A stretch of DNA of 24,449 bases from Nitrospirota bacterium (lineage in GTDB: Bacteria; Nitrospirota; UBA9217), in NCBI GenBank assembly GCA_029858565.1, contig JAOUEV010000051.1:1-24449 (forward strand). Reading direction: 5' to 3'. The translations under genes and the position numbers were made by a program. The notes beneath the pieces are model-generated. The model made no database searches, was not told where the DNA came from, and saw only the letters and a list, made by a program, of their open reading frames with translations. The first letter of the stretch is position 1. Each line of letters starts with the position of its first letter. Below, in pieces: positions 931 through 22,344 of the stretch.

Positions 931-1896
931 TCACTTCTTTTTTCCCAGGACCAGAACAGTATCCCCAAGTCGTTTGGTCTTGATGCCTGAGCAACCGGCT
1001 TCCCTGAGCCATGAACCGATCTCCCGGGCTGTGTAAGAGCGTCCTTCGCTGGTGTTCACCACCATGTTCACCGAAAAAAGCGCGCCCGGGAGTGGGCCTG
1101 CGCGATCGTCATCAAGGGAAAATTCATGGACCGCGATCGTCCCGCCCGGCGCGAGTGCCTCGAACGTTTTAGCGAGAAGCGCACGATTCTCCAGGGGGCC
1201 ATGGGAATGGAGTATCTGGCTGAGCAGGACCAGGTCATAGGGGCCGCCGATATCGTCGAAATGGAAGTCTCCTCCGCGGAACGAGATCTTTTTCGCTCCT
1301 GCGGTCCGCACGATCTCGCGGGCCACGTCAATAGTATTGGGAAGGTCGAAGAGCGTGACCGCGATGCCTTTCTTTGCCAGGGCGATGCTGTACGTGCCCG
1401 GACCTCCCCCAAGGTCCAGCGCCTGTCGCACTCCGCGCAGATCGAGCGCAGAGATGACCTGCCGGACCCGGGGCAGAGCGTTATTATGCATGGCCCTGAT
1501 GAAGACATCGTGATCCCGCTCGCCGGTCCTGTTCGGCATCCCGGAACGTACCACCTCATCGAGCCCGGACCAGCTCTTCCAGAGGGTGTCCGCGTGTCGC
1601 AGCATGTCGCCTTGATAGGCCGGACTCCCGGGAAGGAGGAATTGTTTTGCAAGCGGGGTAAGGCTGTAGGTCACTTTTTGTTTTTTCAGCAAGCCCAGTG
1701 CTGCCAGAGCGTCGAGCAGTATCTCCGTGGCCCGGAGGTCGGTCCTGAGCACCGAAGCAAGGCCGGAAGCGGATGTTCCTGCTCCGACCTGCTCGAATAT
1801 CCGCAGATTGTTCGCGGTCAGGAGAACACGAGATGCGCGGAATCCTCCCCAAAGCTGTGCAAAAGCCGCAGCGGCATCGTGTTTTGCTCTTTTCAT
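931..1896 (-). CDS. SAM-dependent O-methyltransferase (Methyltransf_2 family with N-terminal dimerisation domain)
   Basis: LDLGGGPG SAM motif, LFDLP, GDF, YDLVLLSQILH; N-terminal LLDALAALGLL dimerisation helix; GGGAG RBS; ATGA overlap with the upstream gene. Confidence 0.9.
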   Translation of the reverse strand: MKRAKHDAAAAFAQLWGGFRASRVLLTANNLRIFEQVGAGTSASGLASVLRTDLRATEILLDALAALGLLKKQKVTYSLTPLAKQFLLPGSPAYQGDMLRHADTLWKSWSGLDEVVRSGMPNRTGERDHDVFIRAMHNNALPRVRQVISALDLRGVRQALDLGGGPGTYSIALAKKGIAVTLFDLPNTIDVAREIVRTAGAKKISFRGGDFHFDDIGGPYDLVLLSQILHSHGPLENRALLAKTFEALAPGGTIAVHEFSLDDDRAGPLPGALFSVNMVVNTSEGRSYTAREIGSWLREAGCSGIKTKRLGDTVLVLGKKK

Positions 1897-2300
1897 TGCT
1901 TCGCTCCCTTCAGTTGATCGTAGCAGGCCATGATTTGCTCAAGCGCAGCGGTAAGGGCGCGCGCTTGTTTTTGCGGTCCTGTGGACAGCTCAAGCAGCAA
2001 CGGACCGCAAAAGAACCAGGTGCACCTCCAGGCGCGCTGCCAGCGCGGTTTTGTGCATCCTGTTCGCCCGAGGAACTGGCATGCGTTGTCCAACGGCCAG
2101 GAAGGATCGTGGCTTGGCACTTCCTCTCCCAGCACGGCAAGATAGGCCCGGTCCGCTTCCGTGAACGCGCCGTGGCGCTGCTTGCAGCAGACCTCGGCAC
2201 AGTCCGGACAGACGCGGCTGGTATACTCTTCGATGAGCGGCGAGCACTCTATCAGCAGCCGTTTCAGCTCCTGGGCGATGGCAGGGGCGTTCTTGCTCAT
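1893..2300 (-). CDS. Cysteine-cluster protein (YkgJ/CxxCxxCC-like, putative Fe-S or Zn binding), 135 aa
   Basis: Start is likely ATG 2300 (ATGA overlap with the upstream stop). Motifs CPDCAEVCC...CQFLGRTGC...RAWRCTWFFC. The 271-aa ORF-track version has an implausible N-terminal extension that overlaps another gene. Confidence 0.75.
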   Translation of the reverse strand: MSKNAPAIAQELKRLLIECSPLIEEYTSRVCPDCAEVCCKQRHGAFTEADRAYLAVLGEEVPSHDPSWPLDNACQFLGRTGCTKPRWQRAWRCTWFFCGPLLLELSTGPQKQARALTAALEQIMACYDQLKGAKQ

Positions 2301-2581
2301 GGCGAGAGACGCTCCCCGCAGTGCCGGCACGTTGACGGCACGCAACAGGACCAGGAGAAAATCTCGAAGCCCAGGAATCTCCGCGGACGGAGCAGTACCG
2401 GCATGCGGCAGGCGGGGCAGCGAAAGAGGAATGCGGCGACAGCGTAAAGGATGGTGCTTACGGCAAGATATCCGATCAGTAGCAGTTCGCCGGCCTGAAA
2501 GCTCCAGACGCACCAGCCGATCAGGAAATAGACCGCGAGCCAGATGATCAGGATGCCGTTGTATCGGGAGCGTCTGTCCAT
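2297..2581 (-). CDS. Small membrane protein with two TM helices and a C-terminal zinc-ribbon (CPAC...CC...CRHC)
   Basis: Two hydrophobic segments, then paired CxxC motifs; stop overlaps the next ATG (ATGA); no clear RBS. Confidence 0.7.
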   Translation of the reverse strand: MDRRSRYNGILIIWLAVYFLIGWCVWSFQAGELLLIGYLAVSTILYAVAAFLFRCPACRMPVLLRPRRFLGFEIFSWSCCVPSTCRHCGERLSP

Positions 2582-2704
2582 AGGTGAGGGAAAAAGATAA
2601 TCGCTGACGGCAGGATACCGTAAGGAAGGAGGAAAAGCAAGATGAAGACAACGTTGTGAAGACAGTGTGAAACCGCTGGACCTTTCTGAGACCGGGAATA
2701 ATAG

Positions 2705-3478
2705 TCACTTCATTTTGTCATAGGCGATCAGGGCCGCACCCAGCGCGCCGGTGACCTGGGGATCAGACGGGATCTGGAGCCTGACACCGGTCTCCTGTTC
2801 GATCGCCCTTGCCACGCCCGCATTCTTCGCTACACCTCCGGTAAAGACCACATCCTTCTGGAGACCCACCTTTCCGGTCATGGCGAGTGTTCGTTTCGCG
2901 ACCGAGCGGAACACGCCGCGCAATACCACATCTACCGGCGTCCCGCTCTGGGTCAGGCCGATGATCTCAGATTCAGCGAACACGGCGCACATGGAGGAGA
3001 TCTCCCGCGCTTCCGAGGAGTTTTCCGTGAGCTGTCCCATGTTATCGAGCGGAACGTCGAGCATCAAGCCCACCATCTCGATGAACTTGCCCGTGCCTGC
3101 GGCGCAGCGGTCGTTCATCACGAAGTTCATGACCTTGCCGTTCCCGTCAACGCTGATCATCTTCGAGTCCTGGCCGCCGATGTCGATGACCGTGCGGGCC
3201 TGCGGGAACACGTAGGCGACCCCGCGAGCGTGGCAGAGGATCTCCGACGACACGGCGTCAGCTTCTCGGAAGTAGTTCCTGCCATAACCCGTTGCGATCA
3301 CTTTTACCACATCGGACCGCCTGGCGCCGGCCGCAAGCATAGCGTCGAAGAACGCTTTTTTCGCATTCTCCGCAGGCGCGGCGCCGCTTATTGCGGTGAT
3401 CGCCTCTACGATCTGGCCGCCGTCGTACAGCACGACCTCGATGGAACGGGAACCGATATCAACGCCGGCCGTCAGCAT
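2705..3478 (-). CDS. ATP-dependent [4Fe-4S] activator (HgdC/BadF-G/YjiL/DCCP-R type archerase)
   Basis: GVDIGSRS, ATGYGR, SEILCHARG, IDIGGQDSK, MNDRCAAGTGKF, SSMCAVFAESE, FTGGVAKN, GALGAAL. ATG 3478 follows an AGGAG RBS and is preferred over TTG 3493. Confidence 0.93.
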   Translation of the reverse strand: MLTAGVDIGSRSIEVVLYDGGQIVEAITAISGAAPAENAKKAFFDAMLAAGARRSDVVKVIATGYGRNYFREADAVSSEILCHARGVAYVFPQARTVIDIGGQDSKMISVDGNGKVMNFVMNDRCAAGTGKFIEMVGLMLDVPLDNMGQLTENSSEAREISSMCAVFAESEIIGLTQSGTPVDVVLRGVFRSVAKRTLAMTGKVGLQKDVVFTGGVAKNAGVARAIEQETGVRLQIPSDPQVTGALGAALIAYDKMK

Positions 3479-3492
3479 AAAACTCCTAAACA

Positions 3493-3569
3493 AGGATTGC
3501 AGGATCAGAGAATTATAGGATTAAAGGTAGCACCAACCCGAATCCTTACTCCTGTAATCCTTTAATCCC
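3493..3569. repeat. Intergenic imperfect palindrome built from 8-nt units (AGGATTNN) on both arms; REP-like
   Basis: Left arm AGGATTGC-AGGATCAG-AGAATTAT-AGGATTAA; the right arm reverse-complements to GGGATTAA-AGGATTAC-AGGAGTA-AGGATT. Confidence 0.6.
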
Positions 3570-3573
3570 GATT

Positions 3574-4671
3574 CTAAAGCATCTCTATCAGCGTCTGCAC
3601 TCGCACCTTGATCCGTTCGCGGTCCGAGTCCGAATAATCCGTCTCGACCTTCATGTACGGCATTCCGAGCTTCTCGCGCACGAACCGGTCGATCAGGAAC
3701 GATTCCACATTATAGGTATGGCATGCCTGCCATACCAGGTCGATGACCGCCTGCACCTTGAACTCCTTCGCGAGCTTTCCGATCAGCGCTTCGCGCCCCT
3801 TGTTCGGCGTCATGCAGGAGCAGGGGAGCTGGAAGTACTTTCGTGCGATGGCCTCGACAGGATCGCCGGTCTCATCGACCTGGATATCAAGGGGTTTCAT
3901 GCCCGAGCAGGTCTCCTGCACCACGACAACGGCTCCGCATTCCTCGATCACTTCGATCAGCTTGGTCGTGCCCTGGGCTGTTGGGCAGCCGGTGATCATG
4001 ATGCGGGGAGCGCCTTTCTTCGCAGCGAACTTGCCGTGCTTCTTCCGGTCCCGCGCCTCTGCCATGAATGCTTCGAGCATGCGCAGATGGACCGGGTCCC
4101 CGGCAACGCGGTAGCGAAGCTCAGCAAGCTCCATTCCGGTTACTATCGCCGGGTCCTCCTTGCCGAGCTCGAAGGCCGAGCGCAAAAGGCTCCGTTCGTG
4201 GTTCATGTCTTTGATCGCTTTCCGGAGGTCGTCGTCGGTTATGGTGCGGTTGAAAGTCTTTTCCAGCTTCTTCCGGAGCTTTCCGACCTCGGAAACCCAG
4301 TGGGAAAAAGCCTCTTGTTCCTCGAACTTCTGGGTCAATTCCAGAATATGGACCGGTTGCTTTTCAGCGAGGAGCTCGTACATCTTTTTCTTGCCGTCGC
4401 AGGTGGTCTCCGCCACCACGAGGTCCGCGACCATCAGGAAGGGACAGCGGTTCGTGACAATGTACCCGAAGGAGGACTTGATCAGGGGACAGAGGTTCGA
4501 AGGCAGCACGGTCTCGGCCGGCGGGATCGTCCGGTTGCTCGCTCCGCAGAGACAGACCGGCACCGCGTTCGCGGCCAGGATCAGCTCGCGAGGAGTGAAC
4601 TCACAGTAGATGCCCACAACGCCTTTACCCCGGCGCCTGGCGTCGCGCACCAGGTCCACCTCATGGTTCAT
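3574..4671 (-). CDS. Double-cubane [8Fe-9S] cluster protein (DCCP/YjiM-like, 2-hydroxyacyl-CoA dehydratase family); probably the C-terminal half of a Sec read-through fusion 6171->3574
   Basis: GIYCEFTP, VCLCG, NLCPLIKS, ETTCDGKKKMYE, ITGCP, ETCSG, PCSCMTPN, QACHTYNVES, VETDYS...RVQTLIEML. No Shine-Dalgarno before ATG 4671, and the frame stays open back to the UGA at 4747-4749. Confidence 0.88.
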   Translation of the reverse strand: MNHEVDLVRDARRRGKGVVGIYCEFTPRELILAANAVPVCLCGASNRTIPPAETVLPSNLCPLIKSSFGYIVTNRCPFLMVADLVVAETTCDGKKKMYELLAEKQPVHILELTQKFEEQEAFSHWVSEVGKLRKKLEKTFNRTITDDDLRKAIKDMNHERSLLRSAFELGKEDPAIVTGMELAELRYRVAGDPVHLRMLEAFMAEARDRKKHGKFAAKKGAPRIMITGCPTAQGTTKLIEVIEECGAVVVVQETCSGMKPLDIQVDETGDPVEAIARKYFQLPCSCMTPNKGREALIGKLAKEFKVQAVIDLVWQACHTYNVESFLIDRFVREKLGMPYMKVETDYSDSDRERIKVRVQTLIEML

Positions 4672-4720
4672 GGAATTGCGGAAGTGGTCCGCAGGTGAAT
4701 TGCATGTTACGCGGGGCAGT

Positions 4721-4749
4721 TCGCCGACCGGCGAGGAAACCGGCGTTCA
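4721..4749 (-). promoter_or_regulatory. In-frame UGA plus putative bacterial SECIS hairpin
   Basis: UGA-ACGCCGGUUUCC-UCGCC-GGUC-GGCGA: 12-nt spacer, 5-bp stem, GGUC loop. Confidence 0.7.
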
Positions 4750-6171
4750 GCCGGGTTTCCTGCGCTGCTTCAGCATGTCCATGAAACCCTCCATTCTGTT
4801 CACGACCTGTGCGCTCAAACGGCCCGGAGAGTAGGGCACATCAAAGGACAGGACCGGAATGTTCAATTCCTTTGACACTATTTCGGTGATGGCTTTTTCA
4901 TCGAATGCGCAATGACTGGCGCCGGAGATGCCCGAGATGATCACGCCTTCGGCACCGTACTTCTTCGCGCCTTCGACGATCCTGCGCGCCCGGAACCCGG
5001 CGGAACCTGTCATGGGATCGTCCATGCAGTTCTCGGCAACGGCATCGAAAGGATGTCTGTCAGTAGCGATCGGGAAAAAGGCGTGGCTGATCATGTATTC
5101 GGTGCCGGCAATGCACCCGCCCAGGTCCTCGAGCAGAGTGATGAGCGCGGCATCTGTCGGCGGAGTTGCCCAAAAGATCCGTAAGGGGTCAGGGGTCAGG
5201 GGTGAGGCGTTCAAGCTCAGGCGATGCTTCACCGTTGCAAGCAGGTCATCGAGCACGCAGACGGCTTCGTCCGGGTCGGAGCATGCATGGGGGGCGATGA
5301 ACTCGGCCAGGAGCATCTCAAGTCCGGGGAGGGGCGGCTGCTTTGCGCCGTACACGAGATCTCGCAGCTCCGACACCTTGCTCCGGATGATGTTGAATTT
5401 GTCGCGGCTCTGTTCGAGCATTGCGTCCGTGACCGGAATGCCGCTTACTTCCTCCAGCCGCTTTACCACACCCTTCAACTGGCCTGCCACGAAGTCTCGA
5501 CCGGACCGCTGGTAAGGAGAACCCCCGGGCGAATGCAGGAAGGCCTCCTTGATTATCGGCGATGTCGGCTCGAACCGGACCGCCATCTCCCACCAGTGCG
5601 TGGGGAAGCCTTCAGCCTCGATCAACTGCATGACCGCGGAAAAATCATCGCAGCAGGCGCCTACGCCTGCGATACAGAGGTCGGGCCGGGGGAAGTAGTC
5701 AAGGGTCTTCATGGCGCCGAGAGCTGCCCGGACAAAACAGAGCTCCTCGCCCGCGCCGAGCTTTGCAGCTTCATCGAGCAGGTGTGATTCCTCTGCAAAG
5801 CAGGGCGCCCACCAGAGCTCGTCAGCGTAAAAAGTGAGCGAATCAGGCACCGCATAGCTCAGCACCGGCACTGGTCCCAGGTCCTTCATGGCAGCAAATA
5901 TCTTCCAGCCCTTTTCCTTGGCAAGGAACAGGCGGTCCTTTTCGCTGAAGATAAAGGCCCAGAGACGCAGGGCTGCGAGCGAACTGTCGAACTTGAGCCG
6001 TCGCAGCAGAGTGTCGCCGCGGCAGGAGTACTCGTAGGGACTGAAGAGATAACGAACGCCTCCAGGCACGAGGCTGCGCAGGAACATGCAGCTGGCCCGG
6101 TACGCCTCGGGCACCTGCGGCATCCGCTCTTCCCATTCCATGACGGAGATCTTTTTTACGTCGTTGAACAT
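4747..6171 (-). CDS. 2-hydroxyacyl-CoA dehydratase/benzoyl-CoA reductase-family subunit (divergent); N-terminal half of the predicted 865-aa selenoprotein
   Basis: Family-like motifs AKEKGWKIF, ELCFVRA, GACCDDF, QLKGVVKRLEEVSGIPVTDAML, AKKYGAEGVI, SHCAFD, LNIPVLSFDVPYS...RMEGFMDML; ends in UGA in frame with the downstream DCCP. Confidence 0.82.
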   Translation of the reverse strand: MFNDVKKISVMEWEERMPQVPEAYRASCMFLRSLVPGGVRYLFSPYEYSCRGDTLLRRLKFDSSLAALRLWAFIFSEKDRLFLAKEKGWKIFAAMKDLGPVPVLSYAVPDSLTFYADELWWAPCFAEESHLLDEAAKLGAGEELCFVRAALGAMKTLDYFPRPDLCIAGVGACCDDFSAVMQLIEAEGFPTHWWEMAVRFEPTSPIIKEAFLHSPGGSPYQRSGRDFVAGQLKGVVKRLEEVSGIPVTDAMLEQSRDKFNIIRSKVSELRDLVYGAKQPPLPGLEMLLAEFIAPHACSDPDEAVCVLDDLLATVKHRLSLNASPLTPDPLRIFWATPPTDAALITLLEDLGGCIAGTEYMISHAFFPIATDRHPFDAVAENCMDDPMTGSAGFRARRIVEGAKKYGAEGVIISGISGASHCAFDEKAITEIVSKELNIPVLSFDVPYSPGRLSAQVVNRMEGFMDMLKQRRKPG

Positions 6172-6194: not shown

Positions 6195-7298
6195 CTATTC
6201 CATCATTTCCACGAATGCGTCGATCCGGCTCAAAAGCCGTTCCCGTCCACCCTCTGCATAATCCGAATCGAACACCAGCACTGGCAGGTCAAAGTTCTTG
6301 CGCATGCGCTCCCGTTCTGCGTACCAGTGATCGCAGAACTTGAGGCATTTGACCACAAGGCCCGCGGGCTTACTATCCTTGATTGTTTCCGCGATGCGGT
6401 CGTAGACCGCGCGGTTTGGCCGTGAGCGTGCGCAGGGTGGTTGATGGAATGACCGAAGAGTCAGATTTTTCACGAGGTCATCCTGTGTCTCGTGAGGGGT
6501 TCCATTCTCGACAGCGCTTAGACCAGTGCAGTTAAGCGGCAGGACCGCATAGCCCCGAGCTTCCAGGTCTTCGAGCAGCACGGTATCTTCGTATGCAAGC
6601 GGACTGCCGGTCAGAAGAATGGTCTTCCTGCTCTCAAAGACCGGAGATTTTGCCAGCAAATCTTCGAAAAAGCCGGCCAGTCCCTGCGGACGGGCGACGA
6701 AGAAAAGGTGGAACATGCTGTGGAGATCCAGCGGCGATACTCGGCCGGATCGTGCGGCACGGGCAAGAACACCGGCCGCGGCATCACTGTCCCGCTGCCA
6801 GGTTGCCGCACGCGCAGGATCGAACCGAACGGCGTGGCGGATCTCGAGTTCCGCTGCGATCCGCTGTATCTGGTCAGCATAGTAATCAGCCGACGACCTC
6901 GTCCTGGTCGCCGGGAGCTGGACCGGGTGGACATTCTGACCAAGTGTTCCCGCGAGCGTGTCCATGCCCCTTCGCATGGCATCGCAGGTAAAAAGCCCGA
7001 TCCAGATATCTATTTTCCCATGGGGTCCGCGCTTCTTGCTCACATTGCCCAGCAGTGTCTTGACGAGGGGACAGATATCGGGTCGTACGATCCGCTCTCC
7101 GTCGCTTTCCGCGTCTGAGGATGCTCCGCAGATCACACGGATGGGACGCATTCCCAAACCAGCGATGACCGCGGCTGGGAACGCGTGACAGGTATGGCCA
7201 ACGATCTTGATGCCAGCGGTCCTGTCGCTCTGAATTGAATCCATCTCAGCAGTGAGGCGTGAATCGCAGGCAGTGCGGATTATTGTGGACCCTGTCAT
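6195..7298 (-). CDS. 2-hydroxyacyl-CoA dehydratase-family (HgdB/BcrC-like) subunit; N-terminus possibly encoded by 7295-7414 in another frame
   Basis: IVGHTCHAFP, DICPLVK, FTCDAMRR, LTGSP, LNCTG, PPCAR, LKFCDHW, LPVLVFDSDY...RIDAFVEM; no Shine-Dalgarno before ATG 7298. Confidence 0.85.
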   Translation of the reverse strand: MTGSTIIRTACDSRLTAEMDSIQSDRTAGIKIVGHTCHAFPAAVIAGLGMRPIRVICGASSDAESDGERIVRPDICPLVKTLLGNVSKKRGPHGKIDIWIGLFTCDAMRRGMDTLAGTLGQNVHPVQLPATRTRSSADYYADQIQRIAAELEIRHAVRFDPARAATWQRDSDAAAGVLARAARSGRVSPLDLHSMFHLFFVARPQGLAGFFEDLLAKSPVFESRKTILLTGSPLAYEDTVLLEDLEARGYAVLPLNCTGLSAVENGTPHETQDDLVKNLTLRSFHQPPCARSRPNRAVYDRIAETIKDSKPAGLVVKCLKFCDHWYAERERMRKNFDLPVLVFDSDYAEGGRERLLSRIDAFVEMME

Positions 7299-7414
7299 GT
7301 TATGAAGCTGCCGCCGAGGTCATCGTGTACGCGAAGGAATGCATGATCTCGGCGTTTCTCATGCATCCTGTGCAGGATCTCGCGGTGATCGATATGGTGC
7401 ACGTTGGGCATCAT
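7295..7414 (-). CDS. 39-codon His-rich ORF, or the frameshifted N-terminal part of the 6195-7298 gene
   Basis: MMPNVHHIDHREILHRMHEKRRDHAFLRVHDDLGGSFIT; ATGA overlaps at both ends; resembles the N-terminus of the 4747-6171 protein (V..I...E...RM, FLR, GG). Confidence 0.55.
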   Translation of the reverse strand: MMPNVHHIDHREILHRMHEKRRDHAFLRVHDDLGGSFIT

Positions 7415-8211
7415 TTTTTCACGCCAACAATCCTGGTCCTGCCGAAGGCGCCTTCTTTTGCCTTCTGGAGCATAAATCCCATCTCGCCGCCCATGGCCTG
7501 CATCAGGTTCATATCCCACCCGATGATGCGCAGGGCGTCGAAGGTGAGCTGTTTGGTCAGCATGTCGATGTAGAACTGGATATAGTCCGCGAACTCCGGG
7601 GTCATGTCTTCGGACACCGTGACCTCGAAGCCGTGCTTATTGAGCAGGGACTCGTAGCCTTTCTGGCTTTCCATGTAGGGGAACTTCATGAAGCGATTGA
7701 TGCGTTCGGCATCCTTGTCGGCAAGGCCTTTCGGCCCTTCGACCCAGTCGGTGAAAGCGATGGTGCCTCCCTTTTTTAAAACCCGTGATGCCTCGCTGAT
7801 CTGTTTATCCTTGTCCGCAACATAGCACCATGCATCCTCGCCCCAGACCACGTCAAAGGTATTGCTGTCCCAGGGAATGGTCGTAACGTCGCCGAGCTTG
7901 AACTCTATGGAGCCGTTAAAGCCGCCACGCTCTGCCCGTTTCTTCGCTTCCTCGACCATATGCGCTGTGCCGTCGAGGCCATAACCCTTCACCTGGAAGT
8001 TCTTCACCAGGAACCGGAGACCCGCGCCGAGCGCGCTGCAGAGGTCAAGGACCTTCTGGTCCTTTTTGATGCCCGCTTTCTGGGCCAGGGCCATGGACGA
8101 GGCGAACCCGCCCACATGGATCTGTTCGCCCATGATCATTTCCCAGAGCCGGCCTTCCGGACCTGAGTAGACGGCATTCACATCCTTCAACGTGATATCC
8201 AGTCTCTTCAT
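7411..8211 (-). CDS. Class I SAM-dependent methyltransferase (sarcosine/tocopherol methyltransferase-like)
   Basis: GEQIHVGG, VLDLCSALGAG (motif I variant), GDVTTIPWDSNTFDVVW, RVLKKGG; AAGGA RBS. Confidence 0.9.
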   Translation of the reverse strand: MKRLDITLKDVNAVYSGPEGRLWEMIMGEQIHVGGFASSMALAQKAGIKKDQKVLDLCSALGAGLRFLVKNFQVKGYGLDGTAHMVEEAKKRAERGGFNGSIEFKLGDVTTIPWDSNTFDVVWGEDAWCYVADKDKQISEASRVLKKGGTIAFTDWVEGPKGLADKDAERINRFMKFPYMESQKGYESLLNKHGFEVTVSEDMTPEFADYIQFYIDMLTKQLTFDALRIIGWDMNLMQAMGGEMGFMLQKAKEGAFGRTRIVGVKK

Positions 8212-8257: not shown

Positions 8258-8362
8258 CTAGGCGCTGATCAACAGTAATGCTGATACCGCGAGCGTTGTG
8301 AGAAACCCTGTGAACAGAGCGATTCGGATAATGCGCATGGTGACCTCGAAACGATACAGCAT
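8258..8362 (-). CDS. 34-aa single-pass membrane peptide
   Basis: AAGGAGG RBS, then MLYRFEVTMRIIRIALFTGFLTTLAVSALLLISA-TAG; fills the gap between the MerT-like and methyltransferase genes. Confidence 0.6.
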   Translation of the reverse strand: MLYRFEVTMRIIRIALFTGFLTTLAVSALLLISA

Positions 8363-8399
8363 GGGAGACCTCCTTGGAGCAGGGTGTATGGATAGCCGC

Positions 8400-8786
8400 C
8401 TAGGGCGCGGCCCTGAGATTCTTGATGATCGAGAACGTGGTCAGCATGAGGCTCATGCCAGCCACGATCCAGAGTGTTACCTTCGTTTTTATGCCTACAT
8501 CGCCCTTGTGCTTGAAATAGATTCGGTAGAACGATGTGGCCAGCAGGGTGAAGGTGAACGCGTACAGGAAATAGCGATACTTCACGAACCAAGCCCCGAA
8601 GGCGACGCTTCCCAGGCCAAGACCGGCCAGGATGATGTTCATGTTTCAGAGGATGATCGTTACGACGGCCGAGCCCATGGCACCCTTGGCTGAGCCGATA
8701 CTGCCTTTGCCGGGCAGGGGACAGACCTGTCCGGTTGGAAATGCCTCTTTGGATGGTGACTTTGGCGTGAATTTGAGCTGGTTCAT
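8400..8786 (-). CDS. MerT-like membrane transporter, predicted selenoprotein (128 aa, Sec47)
   Basis: GGAGG RBS and ATG 8786: MNQLKFTPKSPSKEAFPTGQVCPLPGKGSIGSAKGAMGSAVVTIIL-UGA-NMNIILAGLGLGSVAFGAWFVKYRYFLYAFTFTLLATSFYRIYFK... Three TM segments, with the UGA at about the position of the MerT TM1 Cys pair, followed by a SECIS-like hairpin. Confidence 0.8.
8610..8648 (-). promoter_or_regulatory. In-frame UGA plus putative SECIS hairpin
   Basis: UGA-13 nt-UCCU-GGCC-GGUCUU-GGCC-U-GGGA; the loop starts with GGUC 21 nt after the UGA. Confidence 0.7.
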
Positions 8787-8818
8787 GATCCTCCCCTGTG
8801 GAATGCTGAATGATCACT

Positions 8819-9037: not shown

Positions 9038-9931
9038 TTATGCAGAGGGCAGTCGTTCAGAGAGGAACTGGACAAAGACGCGATAGTGTCCCGGAATAGG
9101 TCGGTTCTTTCTGCAAATAATGTGGAAATTCCGCTTCATGCGTACGCCGGTGATCTTTATTTCTTCGACCAGGCCCGCCTTGAGATCGTCCTTCACCACG
9201 AATCGCGAGAGGATCGTTGCGCCGAGTCCCGCCTTGACTGCCTCGCGGAGCGAGTCGGGCGATCCGAGGATCGCCTTGATGTTCAGCGCTTTCATGCTGA
9301 TCTTGTGCAGAAGATGCTGTTTTTCCATGCTGGCGCGGGAATCCGATCCCTCTTCGCGCATCAGAAGTGGGATCGAGAAAAGCTTGAGCGGTGATATCGA
9401 CCTTTTGCCGACAAATCCCGGTTTTGCAACAAGGATCAGTTCATCCTTGAAGGTATGAATCCGTTCTATGTCACCGGCGCTCCGCGGGTCGTCGACGATA
9501 CCCAGCTGAAGATCTCCGGAGGTCACCTGTTCGATGATCTTGCGGGAGTCAGCAATGGTGACCTGGAAAAAGACCTCGGGATATTGCCTGCTGAATTCAG
9601 CGGCAAGGGGAGGGATGACGTAGGAGCCGGGAACGGCCGCGGCGCCGACGGTAATGAGACCCCGCACGGCCTTTTCCGAAGAAAGGAGATCGTTCTTGAT
9701 GTCCTTGAGCCGTTCCATCAGGTCCTCTGCGCGGTTGAAGAGCAATGTGCCTTCCTTCGTGGGGATCGTCTTTCGACCAACGCGATCAAAGAGCTGTATG
9801 CTCAGTTCCTCTTCCAGCTTCTTTACGTGCATGCTGACAGACGGTTGGGTGAGGTGCAGTTCCCGGGAGGCAATGGAAAAACTCCGGTTGCGATAGACTG
9901 AAAGGAAAACTTTGAGCTGATAGATATCCAT
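9038..9931 (-). CDS. LysR-family transcriptional regulator, CysL-like substrate-binding domain
   Basis: HTH MDIYQLKVF...SFSIASRELHLTQPSVSMHVKKLEEELSIQLFDR; PGSYVIP, REEGSDSR, AVKAGLG; GGAG RBS before ATG 9931. Confidence 0.92.
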   Translation of the reverse strand: MDIYQLKVFLSVYRNRSFSIASRELHLTQPSVSMHVKKLEEELSIQLFDRVGRKTIPTKEGTLLFNRAEDLMERLKDIKNDLLSSEKAVRGLITVGAAAVPGSYVIPPLAAEFSRQYPEVFFQVTIADSRKIIEQVTSGDLQLGIVDDPRSAGDIERIHTFKDELILVAKPGFVGKRSISPLKLFSIPLLMREEGSDSRASMEKQHLLHKISMKALNIKAILGSPDSLREAVKAGLGATILSRFVVKDDLKAGLVEEIKITGVRMKRNFHIICRKNRPIPGHYRVFVQFLSERLPSA

Positions 9932-10088
9932 AGCGGTTCTCCAGCCTCTGTTCTGTGGTGGCTTCCTGGTCGACAAGATCAACCACCATGGTCATACTAC
10001 AGTATCAGGGCTTTCGCAGTCAACAGAACCTCGCAAACAACGGCCTTTCTTCTGGAAAAAAACAGGCGTCTTGGTTATACTATTCATC

Positions 10089-10868
10089 ATGACCGAACAA
10101 AAAAGGGAACATTGCGCCCAGTGCGGAACTCAACTGCAGTATCTCACGGCTGCTGTGGACGCTAGATGCACATCCTGTGGCAAGATCTTCCGGTCTCATA
10201 TTACCTGCCCCGAGAACCACGTACTGTGCGACGCCTGTCATGGTAAAGAGGCCCGAAAAATGATCTGGGAACTGGTCAGTACAGACCAGGCAAGGGACCC
10301 GCTCGAGGCGGCGGAGCGAATGATGGCCCATCCGGCAGTCCCGATGCTCTCCTGCGATCACGCGTTCATCGCTGCGGGCGCGCTTCTGACGGCCCTCCAG
10401 AACTCTCCCTGTGGGAAAATGACGGAAAAGGACAGGAAGGAGGTCTTTGACCGCATCGAGGAACAGGCCAGGGGAGGGTATTGTGCTCTTACCGGCGTCT
10501 GCGGCATTGTTCCCGCCATTGGCGCTGTCTTCTCGGTCTTCCTCGGTGCCCGATGCGGAAGCGACCGGGAGCAGCGGATCGTGATGGATGCGGCAACCAG
10601 GACCATGCGGGCGATCACCGAGCTCACCGGACCGAGCTGCTGCAAGGCTTACGTGCGTACTTCGATCGCAGTTGCATCAGAGGTCTTTGCGGAGACCCTG
10701 GGAATCGCTCTTCCTTTGGGGCGCGCCAAGCCAGTCTGCGATCACGCGGAACGGCATCCGCATGGATGCAGGGAAGAGCTCTGTCCGTACTATCGGAAAC
10801 CGTCCAAGGACATCTTTGCAGAAGCCAAATGGGTCCCCGGTATAGCCTGTACTACCTGACGTCCCTAA
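10089..10868 (+). CDS. Cys-rich DUF5714-like protein; predicted C-terminal CTTU-RP selenoprotein (ends at 10859 if the UGA is a stop)
   Basis: CAQCG, CTSCG, CPENHVLCDACH, PMLSCDHAF, GGYCALTGVCG, GPSCCK, CREELCPYY; tail GIACTT-UGA-CGU-CCC-UAA followed by a hairpin. TATACT 7 nt before the ATG suggests a leaderless start. Confidence 0.78.
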
Positions 10869-12157: not shown

Positions 12158-13336
12158 ATGGGTAATGACGGAAAGACACCGATGCTTGATGATCTGGAAA
12201 AAGGAGCATGGCCGAGTTTCGTGAAGGAGATCAAGGTCGCCGCGAAGAAGAGCAACACGGCGAAGGATCTTCTTGGAATTCTCGAGCGGTCCTATAGGGA
12301 CAAAGTCACTCACTGGAAGCACGGCGGTATCGTGGGCGTTCTCGGGTATGGCGGCGGCGTTATCGGCCGTTACTGCGATCTTCCCGAAGAATTCCCCGGC
12401 GTGGCCCACTTCCACACCGTCCGCGTCAATCCGCCGTCAGGATTCTTCTACACGTCCAAGGCGCTCAAAGAACTGTGCGATATTTGGGACAAGTACGGCA
12501 GCGGCATGACCAATATGCATGGCTCCACGGGAGACATGATCTGGCTCGGCACCCAGACCGACAAGCTTGAACCGATCTTCGCTGAGATCACGGCCAAGGG
12601 ATGGGACCTCGGCGGTTCCGGTTCCTGCCTCCGTACCCCGAGCTCCTGCGTCGGTATGGCACGCTGCGAGTTCGCCAATATCGACACAATGGACATCTGC
12701 CACACCCTGACCCACAAGTTCCAGGACGAGCTCCATCGTCCCGCGTTCCCTTACAAGTTCAAGATCAAGGTCTCGGGCTGCGCCAATGACTGCACAGCGG
12801 CCGTGGCCCGCGCCGACATGTCCATCATCGGAACCTGGCGCGACAGCATCCGCATCGACCAGGCCGAAGTGAAGAACTATTCCTCCAAGATGAACATCCA
12901 GGAGGAGATCGTCGGTATGTGCCCGACCAAGTGCATGAGCTTTGACGGTGGCGCTCTGAAGATCAATGACAAGGATTGCAACCGCTGCATGCATTGCATC
13001 AACCAGATGCCGAAGGCGCTCCGCCCCGGAAAAGAGAGGGGTGCCACGATCATGCTCGGCGGCAAGGCCCCGATCGTGACCGGCGCCCTGATGAGCTGGG
13101 TCATCGTTCCCTTCATGAAACTTGAAGCCCCCTATGACAACCTTGAAGACCTTATCCGCAAGCTCTGGGAATGGTGGGATGAGCACGGAAAGAACCGCGA
13201 GCGTATCGGCGAACTCGTTGACCGTATGGGCATGCGCTCCATGCTCGAGTCGACCGGCCTCCCGCCGGTGCCGCAGATGGTGAAGGCGCCGAGGACCAAC
13301 CCCTATGTCTTCTGGGCACCGGGCGAAGTGAAGTAA
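12158..13336 (+). CDS. dsrA: Dissimilatory sulfite reductase alpha subunit
   Basis: TPMLDDLEKGAWPSFV, THWKHGGIVGVLGYGGGVIGRY, siroheme motif CVGMARC...GCANDC, CNRCMHCIN, RTNPY; AAGGAGG RBS. Confidence 0.99.
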   Translation: MGNDGKTPMLDDLEKGAWPSFVKEIKVAAKKSNTAKDLLGILERSYRDKVTHWKHGGIVGVLGYGGGVIGRYCDLPEEFPGVAHFHTVRVNPPSGFFYTSKALKELCDIWDKYGSGMTNMHGSTGDMIWLGTQTDKLEPIFAEITAKGWDLGGSGSCLRTPSSCVGMARCEFANIDTMDICHTLTHKFQDELHRPAFPYKFKIKVSGCANDCTAAVARADMSIIGTWRDSIRIDQAEVKNYSSKMNIQEEIVGMCPTKCMSFDGGALKINDKDCNRCMHCINQMPKALRPGKERGATIMLGGKAPIVTGALMSWVIVPFMKLEAPYDNLEDLIRKLWEWWDEHGKNRERIGELVDRMGMRSMLESTGLPPVPQMVKAPRTNPYVFWAPGEVK

Positions 13337-13378
13337 TGATCTCACAAGAGAGAAAAATTTCAAGGAGGAATACCTAGA

Positions 13379-14452
13379 ATGGCCGACAAACCAAAGAGAA
13401 TAACTGACCTTGGTTCACCTGACTATAAAAAATTCCTGCCTCCCGCGATCGCGAAGAACTACGGGAAGTGGAAATATCATGAACAGCTTGGCAAGGGCGT
13501 GATGAAGCACGTTTCCGAGACCGGCGACGAACTGTACACCGTGCGTATTGCCACGCCCCGACTGGTAAGCACGGACTACATCCGTGAGATGTGCGATATC
13601 GCCGAGAAGTTCTGCGGCGGTTTCCTCCGCTGGACGACCCGCCACAACGTGGAGTTCTTTCCGGCGAAGGACCAGGTTGACGCCCTCACGGCAGACCTCA
13701 AGAAGCGCGGTCACCTGGTCGGCGGCATCGGTTACGGCATCAGCAACGTGGTGCATACCCAGGGCTGGATCCACTGCCACACGCCTGCCACTGACGCCTC
13801 GGGCGTGGTGAAGGCGGTCATGGACGAACTGCATGAGTACTTCACGACGAAGAGCTTGCCGGCACGCGTGCGCATCGCGCTTGCCTGCTGCCTGAATATG
13901 TGCGGCGCCGTGCATTGCTCCGACATCGCCATCCTCGGCATTCATCGCCTGCCTCCCAAGGTGAACGAGGCGACGCTTGCGAACCAGTGCGAGATCCCGA
14001 CGACCATCGCGTCGTGCCCCACGGGCGCCATCAGCCCGAACCCGGCCACGAAGTCGGTGAAGATCAAGGCCGAGCGCTGCATGTACTGCGGCAACTGCTA
14101 CACCATGTGCCCGTCCCTCCCGATCGCAGACGGCTCCGGCGACGGCATCTCGATCTATGTGGGCGGCAAGGTTTCCAATGCCCGCGGCCCGGCGCGGATG
14201 TCCAAGCTGGTCATCCCGTTCCTGCCGAACAACCCGCCGCGCTGGCCCGAGACCGTGAAGGCTGTGAAGCACCTCGTCGAAGTCTATGCCGCGAACGCAA
14301 AGAAGCATGAGCGCATGGGCGAGTGGATCGAGCGGATCGGCTGGGAGCGTTTCTTCAAGCTCACCGGCATTCCGTTCACCTATCAGCATATCGACGACTT
14401 CACTTTTGCCCGTGACACGTTCCGCATGACCCCCACCTTCAAGTGGGAGTAG
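13379..14452 (+). CDS. dsrB: Dissimilatory sulfite reductase beta subunit
   Basis: [71 protein letters not shown]. Confidence 0.99.
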
Positions 14453-14777: not shown

Positions 14778-16194
14778 TGTTTCCATACCCGCTGTTCCCC
14801 GGCTGGTCGTTTCGGCTGTCCGGGGAGGGCTTGGCAAGACAACCATCTCTCTCGGTGTCATCGCGGCCTGGCGAAAAAATGGTTTTCGAGTTGCCCCATT
14901 CAAAAAGGGGCCGGATTTCATTGATGCCGGGTGGTTGGGCGCCGCAGCCGGTGGCAATTGCCATAATCTGGATCTCTTCCTGATGCAGGAAGAAGACATT
15001 AACCGTTCCTTCCAGCAGTACAGCGCAGGAATGGATGCGGCGATGATAGAGGGCAACCGGGGCCTCTTCGATGGGATGGACGAGGTCGGCACGTACAGTA
15101 CGGCCCGTCTTGCCCGTATGCTGGATGCTCCGGTGGCACTTGTTGTTGATTGCACGAAAACCTCGAGCACCGCGGCTGCGGTCGTTCTGGGGTGCAAACT
15201 TTTCGACCCAGCGCTTCGCTTGGGGGCGATCATTCTCAACAACGTGGCATCACCTCGCCACGAAAGCGTCATACGAAAAGCGGTCGAGCAGCATTGTGGC
15301 ATCGCTGTCGTGGGCGCAGTACCGAGGCTCCGTCACGGTGAATTTCCCGAACGGCATATGGGGCTTACGCCGTATCAGGAACACCCCAATGTACGGGGAG
15401 CTATAGAAGCAGCACGGGATGTCGCTGAGCGATACCTTGATCTAGAGGCGCTTTGGCGCATTGCTAAGGGCGATCGTGAAGAAGACCGACATCGCGCTGC
15501 ACCAACGTCGGAAGCCTATTCAAGGGTACAGCCGGACCGTATCGCGACGATAGGCGTTATCAGGGACCGGGCGTTTCAGTTTTACTATCCGGAAAACCTG
15601 GAGGCGCTGGAGCAGCAGGGTGCAACGATACGGTTCATTGATGCCCTGGAAGATGGTGAGTTGCCGGAGATCGACGCACTGTACATCGGCGGAGGGTTCC
15701 CGGAAACACAAGCGGCAGCCCTTGCGGAGAACCGGTCCTTTACGCAGTCCCTTCGGAACGCAGTGGATTCCGGGCTTCCGGTTTATGCAGAGTGCGGCGG
15801 GCTGATATATCTGGGGCGTACGCTTCGTATTAAGGATGATGTCTTTCACATGGCGGGGGTATTGCCGGCGGATTTTGAGCTTGAAAAACGGCCCCGTGCA
15901 CACGGGTATACGGTCGTTGAAGTGGATGGCAATAATCCGTTCTTTGAAAAGGGTAGTTTGATACGGGGACACGAGTTCCATTATTCCTACATCAAGAATC
16001 CCGCCGAGTTGTCTGAAATGGTCTTTGCCATGCGAAGAGGCAAGGGTATTGAAGGCGGCCGCGACGGTATCGTTCACAAGAACGTGTTGGCGACGTACAC
16101 GCACCTGCACGCAACGGGCACTCCGCAGTGGGCAGCGGGAATGATAAAAAGCGCCCGGTCCTATCGTCAGGGAAGAAAACAGGGGAGCGCGTGA
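14777..16194 (+). CDS. dsrN: DsrN, cobyrinate a,c-diamide synthase-like siroheme amidase; 5' end frameshifted or uses a non-canonical start
   Basis: The 14935 ORF frame extends upstream as PRLVVSAVRGGLGKTTISLG...PFKKGPDFIDAGWLG; later IEGNRGLFDG, ERHMGL, FQFYYPENLE, YAECGG, GHEFHYS, YTHLH. ATG 14777 is in a different frame. Confidence 0.92.
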
Positions 16195-19292: not shown

Positions 19293-20288
19293 ATGACAGC
19301 CATAATTTCGTTCATCGCAGTTCTCCTGCTGGTGGCGATCGGCTATGTCGGAGGAAGTGCGGGTCCATCGGTCCGTTTCCTTTTCGGCGTGGTAATTCCC
19401 TATGCGGCATTCATCTTCTTCGTCGGCGGTTTGATCGCACGCATCATGAAATGGGCGAGCTCTCCGGTGCCGTTCAACATCGTTACGACGACAGGCCAGC
19501 AGAAGACCCTGCCCTGGATCAAGCACAGCAAGATAGAAAGTCCCTACAGCGCATTTGGCGTGGTCATCCGCATGGCGCTGGAGATACTGGCGTTCCGGTC
19601 CCTTTTCCGCAATCTGAAGACACAACTGCATGAAGGCGGACGTGTGGCCTACGGCGAAGCAAAATGGCTTTGGATGGCCGGCCTGGCTTTCCATTACTCT
19701 TTTGCGATCATCCTGTTCCGCCATCTTCGTTTCTTCATCGAAAAGGTCCCTGTTGCCGTTCAGATGACTGATATGCTGGATAGCTTTCTTCAGATCGGCG
19801 CTCCGCTCCTGTACGCTACCGATGTCGTCCTCCTGGGAGCGGTCACCTATTTGTTCATCCGCCGCGTGGCCATCCCGCAGGTGCGCTACATATCGCTTGC
19901 GGCTGACTATTTCCCTTTGTTCCTGATCTTCGGGATCGGCGCGACAGGTGTGTTGATGCGGTATTTCACGAAGACCGATATCATTAGTGTGAAGATGCTG
20001 GCCATGGGACTGATCAGCTTCAAACCGGTCGTGCCTGACACCATCGGCGCAATGTTCTTCGTTCACCTTTTCCTGCTTTCAGTTCTGTTCGCTTATTTCC
20101 CACTGAGCAAGCTGGTGCACATGGGCGGCGTATTCCTGAGCCCCACGCGGAACCTGCCGAACAACAGCCGGGCGGTGCGCCACGTCAACCCCTGGAACTA
20201 TCCTGTGCACGTTCATACGTATGAGGAGTATGAGAATGACTTCAGGGATAAGATGAAAGAGGCCGGCCTGCCGGTAGAAAAGGAGTAA
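19293..20288 (+). CDS. dsrM: DsrM, NarI-like membrane cytochrome b
   Basis: KWASSPVPFNI, SLFRN, WLWMAGLAFHYS...RHLR, YFPLSKLVHMGGVFLSPTRN, NPWN. Confidence 0.97.
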   Translation: MTAIISFIAVLLLVAIGYVGGSAGPSVRFLFGVVIPYAAFIFFVGGLIARIMKWASSPVPFNIVTTTGQQKTLPWIKHSKIESPYSAFGVVIRMALEILAFRSLFRNLKTQLHEGGRVAYGEAKWLWMAGLAFHYSFAIILFRHLRFFIEKVPVAVQMTDMLDSFLQIGAPLLYATDVVLLGAVTYLFIRRVAIPQVRYISLAADYFPLFLIFGIGATGVLMRYFTKTDIISVKMLAMGLISFKPVVPDTIGAMFFVHLFLLSVLFAYFPLSKLVHMGGVFLSPTRNLPNNSRAVRHVNPWNYPVHVHTYEEYENDFRDKMKEAGLPVEKE

Positions 20289-20290
20289 TC

Positions 20291-21910
20291 ATGTCCAAAC
20301 TTCCGAAACCTGCTGAATTAGCGAAAGTCTCATATCAGCTTCCCAAGACCGGCTGGATGGATACTCCTGTTGAGTTCAAGCCGGGGATGTTCTGCCACGG
20401 GTCTAAGCCCAAGAGCCTGGAACTGGTGGGGTTTCCCAATCCCCGCGAATGGCGGCCTGCGGACGCTGACTGGAAGCTTCCTGAAAACTGGAAAGAGATC
20501 ATCATTGAGGGGATCGCCGATCGCCTTAAGAAGTACCGGTCCTTCCGGCTGTTCATGGACATCTGCGTGCGCTGCGGCGCCTGCGCGGACAAGTGCCATT
20601 TCTTCATCGGCACCGGCGATCCGAGGAATATGCCGGTACTTCGCGCCGAGCTGATCCGGTCTGTGTACCGCAAGGAATTCACGACTGCCGGAAAGATCCT
20701 CGGCAAGATGGCCGGCGGCCGGGAACTCACTCTCGATGTGCTGAAAGAATGGTGGTACTACTTCTATCAGTGCACGGAATGCCGTCGCTGCTCGGTCTTC
20801 TGCCCCTACGGCATCGATCAGGCGGAGATCACCATCATCGGACGCGAGCTGCTCAACCTGCTTGGTCTGAACATCGAGTGGATCGCGGGCCCGGTCTCGA
20901 ACTGCTACATGAAAGGCAACCACCTGGGCCTTGAACCCCACACGATCGTCGGCAACCTCGAGTATATGCTCGATGACATCGAAACGGTCACCGGCAAGCG
21001 CATCAAGCCGACATTTAACCGGAAGGGCGCGGAGATCCTGTTCGTGACGCCTTCGGGAGATCTGTTCGCTGATCCAGGCACGTACACTGCCATGGGGTAC
21101 CTCATGCTGTTCGAGGAGCTCGGCCTGGATTATACCTGGAGCACCTACGCATCTGAAGGCGGAAACTTCGGGTTCTTCACCTCGAACGAGATGGGCAAAC
21201 GGCTCAATTCCAAGATCTACGCAGAAGCCAAGCGACTCGGCGTGAAATGGATCCTCGGCGGGGAATGCGGACATATGTGGCGCGTGCTCTCGCAGTATAT
21301 GGACACCTGGAACGGCCCTGCCGACTTCCTCGAAGTGCCAAAATCGCCGATCACCGGCACGGTGTTCGAGAACGCCAAATCCATGAAAATGGTCCATGTC
21401 GCCGAATTTACCGCGGACCTGATCAAGAACAACAAGCTCAAGCTGGATCCGAGCCGCAATGACCATCTCAAGGTCACGTGGCACGATTCCTGTAACGTTG
21501 CCCGCGGCATGGGCATGCTTGAGGAACCGCGGTACGTGCTGAAGAGCGTGGTCAACAACTTCGTGGAAATGCCTGAAGACACCATTCGCGAAAAGACCTT
21601 CTGCTGCGGCAGCGGCACCGGTTTGAACGCTTCGGAGAACATGGAGCTTCGCATGAAGGGCGGCTTCCCCCGCGCGAATGCGGTCAAGTATGTCCACGAG
21701 CACCACGGCGTCAATATGCTGGGCAATGTCTGCGCAATCGACCGCGCGTCCCTGAAAGCCCTCATGGAGTACTGGGTGCCAGGCGTGGGCGTATGCGGAC
21801 TCCATGAACTGGTTGCCAATGCCATGATCATGACGGGTGAAAAGGAGAGGACGACCGACCTGCGCGGCGAGCCCCTTCCGAGCGTTGCTGCGAAGGAGGA
21901 AAAAGCCTGA
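20291..21910 (+). CDS. dsrK: DsrK, HdrD-like Fe-S catalytic subunit
   Basis: CVRCGACADKCH, CTECRRCSVFCP, GECGH, HDSCN, TFCCGSG, CAID. Confidence 0.98.
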   Translation: MSKLPKPAELAKVSYQLPKTGWMDTPVEFKPGMFCHGSKPKSLELVGFPNPREWRPADADWKLPENWKEIIIEGIADRLKKYRSFRLFMDICVRCGACADKCHFFIGTGDPRNMPVLRAELIRSVYRKEFTTAGKILGKMAGGRELTLDVLKEWWYYFYQCTECRRCSVFCPYGIDQAEITIIGRELLNLLGLNIEWIAGPVSNCYMKGNHLGLEPHTIVGNLEYMLDDIETVTGKRIKPTFNRKGAEILFVTPSGDLFADPGTYTAMGYLMLFEELGLDYTWSTYASEGGNFGFFTSNEMGKRLNSKIYAEAKRLGVKWILGGECGHMWRVLSQYMDTWNGPADFLEVPKSPITGTVFENAKSMKMVHVAEFTADLIKNNKLKLDPSRNDHLKVTWHDSCNVARGMGMLEEPRYVLKSVVNNFVEMPEDTIREKTFCCGSGTGLNASENMELRMKGGFPRANAVKYVHEHHGVNMLGNVCAIDRASLKALMEYWVPGVGVCGLHELVANAMIMTGEKERTTDLRGEPLPSVAAKEEKA

Positions 21911-22344
21911 TGAAGATCTATAACGGTGGACCGATATTCCTCGGCATCCTGGTATTCCTGGCGATTGCGCTCTTTCCGTTCTACAACAATTTCGGAAAGG
22001 TGAACGCAAAACCGGAGCCGAAGGTGGACACTCCGGCGATCCAGGAGTACGAGAAGGCCAACGGCAAGAAAGAATGCATCGAGTCAAAGGAATGGATGCG
22101 CGGGGAGCACATGCAGATCCTGAACCAGTGGCGTGATTCGGTGGTTCGCGATTACAATCGCACTTACAAGAGCAACTCGCATCCTAATGCTGCTCCGTTT
22201 AACATGAGCCTGCAGAGCGGCTGCATGAAGTGTCATTCAAACAAGAAGAAATTCTGTGACGAGTGCCACAACTATCTGTCCGTCAAGCCCTATTGCTGGG
22301 ATTGCCATATCCAGCCCGAGGAGAAGGAGGAGGTAAAATCATGA
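21910..22344 (+). CDS. dsrJ: DsrJ, triheme cytochrome c
   Basis: N-terminal anchor, MRGEHMQILNQWRDSVVR, CMKCH, CDECH, CWDCH. Confidence 0.97.
   Translation: MKIYNGGPIFLGILVFLAIALFPFYNNFGKVNAKPEPKVDTPAIQEYEKANGKKECIESKEWMRGEHMQILNQWRDSVVRDYNRTYKSNSHPNAAPFNMSLQSGCMKCHSNKKKFCDECHNYLSVKPYCWDCHIQPEEKEEVKS

Follow-up and report, generated by a model that had tools for sequence, protein, structure and literature searches.

We describe here a pair of adjacent HGD-D family genes that very likely encode a single selenoprotein. They lie on the minus strand of a 24,449-nucleotide contig of a Nitrospirota bacterium (GenBank assembly GCA_029858565.1, contig JAOUEV010000051.1), which was analyzed over its whole length and is called the window below. 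The UGA at 4749–4747, at which the first of the two annotated genes ends, is in all likelihood a selenocysteine (Sec) codon that is read through under the control of a selenocysteine insertion sequence (SECIS), so that the two genes would be one gene for an 865-residue protein. We favor this reading because fused orthologs exist, because cysteine (Cys) occurs in some of them at the same column, because a hairpin of one kind follows this site only in loci that have TGA there, and because the host genome contains complete Sec machinery. The same four observations support the Sec-linked 865-residue fusion put forward in an earlier reading of these letters alone, which we refer to as the original prediction.

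Two reading frames joined across an in-frame UGA

The upstream part of the proposed fusion is a 474-codon HGD-D-type open reading frame (ORF) at 6171–4750, which stops at the TGA at 4749–4747. It is followed by 25 open sense codons (4672–4746) and, 78 nucleotides on and in the same frame, by the ATG at 4671, which opens a 365-codon double-cubane-cluster protein (DCCP) ORF (4671–3577) ending in TAG at 3576–3574. With TGA translated as U, the junction reads ...KQRRKPG-U-TPVSSPVGELPRVTCNSPADHFRNS-MNHEV..., the protein runs to the TAG over 865 residues, and the peptide expected across the UGA is KPG-U-TPVSSPVGELPR. There is no ATG, GTG or TTG in the window's linker between the TGA and ATG 4671, and no word resembling a Shine-Dalgarno (SD) sequence was found in the 17 nucleotides preceding that ATG. 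A hairpin, UCGCC-GGUC-GGCGA (4721–4734), starts after a spacer of 12 nucleotides, which places its apical loop 17 nucleotides from the UGA. The original prediction had described the in-frame UGA, the 25 open codons, the ATG without SD word and the position of the hairpin correctly. We note that frame agreement has a chance of 1 in 3, that 25 open codons in GC-rich DNA have one of about 1 in 2 (our own estimate), and that short GC hairpins are common. The in-frame UGA, open linker and hairpin are thus weak when taken alone, and the case is carried by the comparative data.

The window contains three consecutive HGD-D family ORFs followed by a BcrAD/BadFG-type ATPase, and the fusion belongs to a conserved cassette comprising methyltransferase, DCCP-like paralog, alpha-like domain, DCCP and activase. 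The downstream part of the fusion (residues 501–865; 3577–4671) scored 496.3 bits against the NCBIfam model NF040772 (cutoff 350), with a match over residues 508–865 and profile position 12 at residue 508. It also matched PDB entries 6ENO and 7YYL (E = 6e-69; 236 bits for 6ENO), and the top Foldseek matches were 7yzm and 6eno. We classify this part, from its sequence, as a DCCP. The upstream part (residues 1–474; 4750–6171), which has many invariant Cys, matched Pfam PF06050 with 134 bits, has homologs of 72%–89% identity, and is assigned as a divergent alpha-sized member of the HGD-D family. A fold search with the whole model also returned the alpha-sized chains HadB and BzdO (3o3o_A and 8s02_A) beside beta-sized chains. 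All hidden Markov model scores for the 2-hydroxyacyl-CoA dehydratase and class I benzoyl-CoA reductase equivalogs were far below cutoff (TIGR02263, 91.5 versus 421; NF052456, 86.8 versus 700; TIGR03190, 85.5 versus 454), which places the protein outside these groups. None of the NCBIfam selenoprotein "exception" models matched the fusion.

The ligand motif of DCCPs, as given in the accessible part of the Haft and Gwadz preprint (10.1101/2022.07.06.499078), consists of seven Cys spaced as CX19CX18-19CX29CX166-170CX32-34CX32C. The C-terminal domain has seven invariant Cys (523, 542, 561, 591, 755, 784/786 and 817), with hand-counted spacings of 18, 18, 29, 163, 30 and 30 that are 1–3 residues off this motif. 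All seven lie in the C-terminal domain, and Sec475 is predicted not to be among them, which agrees with the earlier proposal that the Sec sits in an interdomain linker and is no cluster ligand. In the AlphaFold 2 model, residues 473–490 have a pLDDT below 50 and residues 493–498 form a helix, and Sec475 would accordingly belong to a predicted flexible linker of about 28 residues between the domains. A phmmer search did not align the linker to the N terminus of DCCP.

A word-indexed protein search returned mostly proteins of about 474 residues, along with several long ones that are continuous across the junction. An exhaustive search gave the full-length fused representatives P0122 (867 residues) and P0123 (861 residues), and among the others is P0027 (824 residues, N-terminally cut); P numbers denote database proteins and L numbers fetched relative loci. 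Twenty-one database proteins with 72%–89% identity end in the junction region, about 19 of them 2–4 residues past the basic pair. The survey of relatives comprised 37 loci from genomes and 29 from metagenomes (66 in total). With the window included, the junction can be read in 58 loci, while contig ends truncate the other 9; because several are identical copies, the counts exaggerate how independent the loci are. By sequence comparison, the readable loci fall into 30 uninterrupted fusions, 21 loci that are split or otherwise broken, and 7 with one in-frame TGA at the same position of the linker (the window, L020, L032, L053, L058, L073 and L079). The TGA loci keep the full-length linker in frame without exception (7/7), with 24–25 codons past the TGA, and both domains are intact throughout. 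Their N-terminal domains are 75%–80% identical to that of the window, and the downstream domain is 70%–81% identical across the TGA loci that include it.

Fused loci have a variable linker of about 28–30 residues that ends in a conserved P-x-E/D-Y-F-R/K-N-S-M. In the window, this corresponds to the last nine or so linker residues, SPADHFRNS, and the motif P-x-E/D-Y-F-R/K-N-S is conserved in fused and split relatives alike. The amino acids ahead of ATG 4671 are conserved although their codons vary synonymously (CCT, CCG or CCA for Pro; GCG, GCA or GCC for Ala), and the conserved motif ahead of Met501 is helical in the structure model (residues 493–498). The true split forms, 15 of which were examined, have lost the linker; their downstream ATG overlaps the stop as ATGA in 10 of 15, and they have purine-rich leaders. 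The downstream ORF includes a PFxYF motif in all 15, with the first start 2–9 residues ahead of it in 14; the listed start of the remaining one (L052) is an artifact of a long open frame. Translation from ATG 4671 would forfeit a motif that every standalone partner keeps. L079 offers no start codon (ATG, GTG or TTG) from the TGA up to the conserved GIYCE, and the position of the window's Met501 is taken by Phe in both L058 and L079.

The alpha–beta pair has undergone fusion and fission several times. The linker-deleted split lineages with an ATGA overlap (L042, L043, L046, L048, L049, L051, L054, L056, L071 and L076) come from metagenome-assembled genomes (MAGs) labeled Victivallis, Hyd24-12 or Fermentibacteraceae, one unlabeled MAG, and metagenome contigs. 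L044 has a linker that otherwise resembles those of the fusions, but its downstream domain is shifted to the +1 frame, and P0066 represents a nearly identical N-terminal domain with a frameshift; both are probably frameshifts or assembly errors. No fusion ortholog was found in 40 relatives of the host genome, and since the cassette is patchy, these kin genomes are uninformative.

A tree of the N-terminal domain (55 rows, quick method) placed the seven TGA rows and four fused rows in one clade with 100% support. Within this clade, the codon at the Sec column (4747–4749 in the window) is TGA in seven loci, TGT in L021, TGC in L059, GGC in L024 and AGT in L057. The sister clades are fused and have no fixed Cys at this column. 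The original prediction had looked to fused homologs with Cys or UGA in the linker as a check, and both kinds were found (L021 and L059, and the six further TGA loci, respectively). Homologs split into two genes with a start and ribosome-binding site of their own, of the kind it had set against the fusion, occur only in other clades and not in that of the window. A selenol or thiol at this site would seem to be recurrent but dispensable in some lineages and, because close relatives carry Cys, Gly or Ser, Sec475 is unlikely to be an essential cluster ligand. Cys occurs somewhere in the tail in 18 of 107 distinct tails. The window has a linker Cys 15 residues past the U, and an earlier suggestion that the two act as a pair did not survive comparison: a Cys 11–15 residues past the U is present in only three of the seven TGA loci, and we rejected it as a general partner of the Sec.

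A SECIS-like hairpin and the selenium machinery of the host

Hairpins with a GGUC loop and a stem of at least 5 bp follow the TGA in six of the seven TGA loci, compared with none of the 30 fused and none of the 21 split loci. In all six, the hairpin starts 11–12 nucleotides past the UGA, and the sequence of the spacer varies freely. In L053, the one TGA locus without it, another hairpin (CCGCC-CGUGAC-GGCGG) begins 13 nucleotides past the UGA. The stem measures 5 bp in the window (about −8 kcal/mol) and 6–7 bp in some orthologs. Changes in the stem include U-A to C-G in L032, G-C to A-U in L079 and a swapped extension pair, so that a check for covariation, as proposed originally, found three of six pairs altered on both sides among six sequences. 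This number of double-sided changes was matched by 12 of 500 shuffles, and slid registers pair far worse. We regard compensatory change in these six related sequences as suggestive. Additionally, the peptide that the hairpin encodes (SPVG) is absent from the Sec-free members of the clade, which points to conservation at the RNA level. The 17 nucleotides between UGA and loop in the window, with G and U in the loop, are inside the range of 16–37 nucleotides that the accessible part of PMC10778597 gives for bacterial UGA-to-apical-loop distances, and a minimal SECIS hairpin of 5/6 bp is described in the accessible part of PMC4607533.

The host genome contains tRNA-Sec, and its selA and selB genes scored above model cutoffs. 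Two selD genes have one in-frame TGA each (C3:2376–3290 and C14:90529–91446), two full-length fdhA genes have TGA at the canonical site (C41:35343–37343 and C7:6454–8460), and an Fdh-like gene with UGA (C24:36982–37425) is perhaps a third Sec-containing formate dehydrogenase alpha. From this gene content, selenium use by the host is predicted to be extensive. Past the UGA, the two fdhA genes have 11 nucleotides and then a 7-bp stem with a GGUCU loop, and selD-1 has 12 nucleotides and then a 7-bp stem with an AGGUC loop; the loops of selD-2 and of the Fdh-like gene on C24 differ from GGUC. Three of the five known UGA contexts of the host genome therefore have the GGUC motif at almost the distance seen at the fusion site. 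Like the SECIS of the two fdhA genes, the hairpin in the window comes right after the UGA and has a GGUC loop whose position agrees within one base, but its stem has 5 bp compared with at least 7, and it lies in an otherwise unconserved linker. The loop also matches that of Escherichia coli fdhF (G23/U24).

When the whole genome was scanned for TGA codons with a GGUC hairpin (stem of 5 bp or more) behind them, 47 sites came up. At just two of these is the TGA flanked on either side by 50 or more open codons, namely the fusion site and a DUF1573-like ORF on C85, and the other translated frames resemble noise. The ORF on C85 (6417–7007, minus strand) is a candidate further selenoprotein, with an in-frame TGA in ...VSAS-U-GCTAG... 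followed by 12 nucleotides and a stem of 6–7 bp with a GGUC loop; its N-terminal part scored 24.6 bits against DUF1573, just short of the cutoff of 26.1.

Alternative explanations and the proposed product

Several observations weigh against read-through. The seven TGA loci belong to one clade, so that neither the association of hairpin and TGA nor the covariation counts represent independent events, and the covariation score itself was equaled by 33 of 500 shuffles. A further point is the shortness of the stem; given only the window's segment from the UGA to +63, RNAfold favors another pairing that competes with it. Rfam returned no SECIS-type match for the whole window at gathering thresholds, nor for 4640–4790 at E values up to 10 (only a chance mir-451), a null result that is uninformative because only described, curated families are included. 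Met501 is present in the window as a possible internal start, and in L058 a GGAGG word precedes a GTG. L024 (Gly) and L057 (Ser), to which the window is most closely related, have neither Sec, nor Cys in its place, nor a linker Cys. Finally, TGA is the first stop in 18 of the 21 split loci too, mostly via the ATGA overlap, for which reason the identity of the stop codon was dropped as an argument.

If the UGA were an ordinary stop, coupling or re-initiation would start the DCCP at ATG 4671, with the hairpin serving as an intercistronic regulatory or stability element. A split between alpha and beta is natural in other clades (21 of 58 loci), the NF040772 profile begins near the available Met501, and gene callers split all the TGA loci. 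However, the true splits have ATGA overlaps, purine-rich leaders and no linker, and they include PFxYF, whereas ATG 4671 lacks an SD-like word and L079 lacks any start codon. Frame and linker length are also kept in 7/7 TGA loci, the hairpin shares its loop and spacing with the host's own fdhA SECIS, and Cys occurs at the same column, and we consider two separate genes very unlikely. Bacterial Sec decoding competes with termination, and it is conceivable that the 474- and 865-residue products are both functional, with the UGA selected as a selenium-gated switch that sets the ratio of alpha to alpha–beta or makes DCCP synthesis conditional on selenium. The Gly and Ser that replace the residue in the nearest relatives would fit selection on the codon rather than on chemistry, and a LysR gene matching a selenium-associated model lies two genes upstream. 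The UGA of the window is also in the loop of a second hairpin of about 10 bp predicted by RNAfold (4735–4761; GGAAACC.GGC / GCCGGUUUCC), which lies directly 5' of the SECIS-like element and abuts its stem. This extra hairpin is not conserved, though, with weaker equivalents in L020 and L053 only and none in the remaining TGA loci. Moreover, split lineages always co-encode beta right behind alpha, alpha alone is without support as a functional unit, and Cys at the exact site points to thiol or selenol chemistry instead of a gate, all of which makes a dual output improbable in our view. The frameshifted relatives L044 and P0066 might suggest a nonsense mutation, decay of the fusion gene or a faulty assembly, but the same TGA column in seven independent assemblies (MAGs labeled Nitrospirae, one labeled Planctomycetota, and metagenome contigs), with intact domains, leaves such an explanation a negligible chance.

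For read-through at a Sec codon, the recoding mechanism is the known bacterial one. The GGUC-loop hairpin 12 nucleotides downstream would recruit SelB and Sec-tRNA(Sec), and the ribosome would read through the UGA to produce a single 865-residue selenoprotein, in which a flexible linker of some 28 residues, bearing Sec475, would join an alpha-like HGD-D domain to a DCCP (NF040772) domain. This fusion would work within the cassette of methyltransferase, DCCP-like paralog and activase. When selenium is lacking, translation would stop after the alpha-like domain, and the complete enzyme would be selenium-dependent, as any selenoprotein is. The comparisons show the fused architecture, the recoding signature and the Sec machinery, and from them we infer actual insertion of selenium and a role for the selenol. 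Our best guess is that Sec475 serves as an accessory residue for redox chemistry or chalcogen handling, carried on a mobile tether close to the interface of alpha and beta. A bolder and rather unlikely version is that Sec475 acts as a swinging selenol on a disordered tether that takes up, keeps or transfers a chalcogen, metalloid or organometallic intermediate (for instance bound as Se-S or Se-Se), linking the alpha-like site with the double-cubane site and with the ArsM-like methyltransferase of the cassette, which would make the LysR_Se-linked cassette a machine for ATP-driven reduction and methylation of selenium or metalloids. If true, this would explain the co-occurrence of DCCP with SelD.

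The closest characterized system is DCCP with DCCP-R of Carboxydothermus hydrogenoformans (6ENO, 7YYL and 7YZM), which the window resembles in the NF040772/6ENO match of the C-terminal domain and in the activase gene that follows. Compared with that system, the DCCP domain of the window is fused behind a 474-residue alpha-like domain via a Sec-holding linker, and a second DCCP-like paralog and a methyltransferase are fixed neighbors. HadBC and BzdNO/MbdON are similar in the fold of both domains, in the sizes of alpha (about 400–440 residues) and beta (about 375 residues), and in an ATP-dependent activase, but they are separate subunits without Sec, and the window scores far below their family cutoffs. 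The Sec-free fused orthologs (L021, L059, L024, L057 and the Fermentibacteria loci) share the cassette, 60%–84% identity and the linker length; they differ in lacking the GGUC hairpin and in the residue at the U position, which is Cys, Gly, Ser or another one.

The situation is also comparable to that of selenoproteins truncated at U in databases, such as the SAO system and HgcA in the accessible part of Haft and Gwadz (2022), in that annotation ends at the UGA and recognition depends on Cys homologs and a SECIS. In the accessible part of their preprint (10.1101/2022.07.06.499078), 955 of 970 high-scoring DCCPs are found in SelD-containing genomes; DCCP-type enzymes are described there as reducing very inert small molecules, with physiological substrates unknown and the near-perfect co-occurrence with SelD unexplained. 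The link of DCCP to selenium in that part of the text is one of co-occurrence only, whereas here a DCCP-family polypeptide would itself contain Sec. We found no report of a Sec-containing DCCP, HgdB, BcrC or BadD/HGD-family protein in the literature covered, with supplements and most subscription journals outside that coverage. If our reading is true, a Sec-carrying polypeptide of the DCCP family, encoded close to a LysR that matches the selenium-associated model, would be the first physical link of the family to selenium and an experimental handle. About 20 database entries, and the MAG records behind L020, L032, L053, L058, L073 and L079, seem to divide the fusion gene wrongly into a "474-aa dehydratase" and a "365-aa dehydratase." A Sec in a variable, apparently disordered linker, alternating with Cys, Gly and Ser within one clade while the gene is split in others, is an unusual setting for studies of Sec gain and loss.

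The cassette and its surroundings

The 16 loci checked, whose labels span several phyla, have the cassette too, in part only on the short contigs L073 and L058. Upstream of the fusion lies the DCCP-like paralog (6195–7298, minus strand; 367 residues), which is identified by PF06050 and synteny and scored 134 bits, below cutoff, against NF040772. The adjacent gene at 2705–3493 (minus strand) is predicted to encode an ATP-dependent activase of the DCCP-R/HgdC type (PF01869; TIGR00241, 243.7 bits versus a cutoff of 125.4). An activase is present in 14 of the 16 loci checked; none was seen on the short contigs L057 and L058. The gene at 7411–8211 (minus strand) is a putative S-adenosylmethionine methyltransferase, weakly ArsM- or DVU_1556-like with scores below cutoff, and has a counterpart in 53 of the 66 loci.

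We considered the methyltransferase as a second selenoprotein, since its TGA opens onto an in-frame Cys-rich stretch (UCPTC...SCTGC) spanning the 112-nucleotide gap to the next gene (7300–7413, minus strand). Its relatives end in TAG (7), TAA (4) or TGA (4 including the window; n = 15), and the extensions are not conserved, which led us to reject recoding; this TGA is probably a true stop. The TGA after a 182-residue ORF was likewise considered as a recoding site, and no sign of recoding was found there. This ORF (8269–8817, minus strand) and another of 271 residues (1893–2708, minus strand) flank the cassette without a Pfam or NCBIfam match, and beside the cassette in relatives they occur in 1 and 0 of the 66 loci, respectively.

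Two genes upstream is a LysR regulator (9038–9982, minus strand) that barely exceeded the cutoff for the model of a selenium-metabolism-associated subfamily (NF040786, 252.5 bits versus a cutoff of 250). This regulator gene also flanks the cassette in L024 and L079. In the accessible part of Lin et al. (PMC5322559), which describes the LysR_Se subfamily, its top STRING partner is a 2-hydroxyglutaryl-CoA dehydratase subunit. Divergent from the LysR gene is a DUF5714 protein with a hint of a zinc ribbon (10071–10859, plus strand).

The remainder of the window contains a gene set of the dissimilatory sulfite reductase (Dsr) type on the plus strand (12158–14452 and 19293–24351), with two NIR_SIR proteins that are DsrAB-like. 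A CobB/CobQ-type amidotransferase (14935–16194) is part of the same set, as are membrane-complex genes with nitrate-reductase-gamma-like, Fer4/CCG, Fer4_11 and NrfD matches (DsrMK..OP-like). We note that the Dsr names are our interpretation of Pfam matches. With this gene set, the host looks like a sulfite- or sulfate-reducing organism of the Nitrospirota type.

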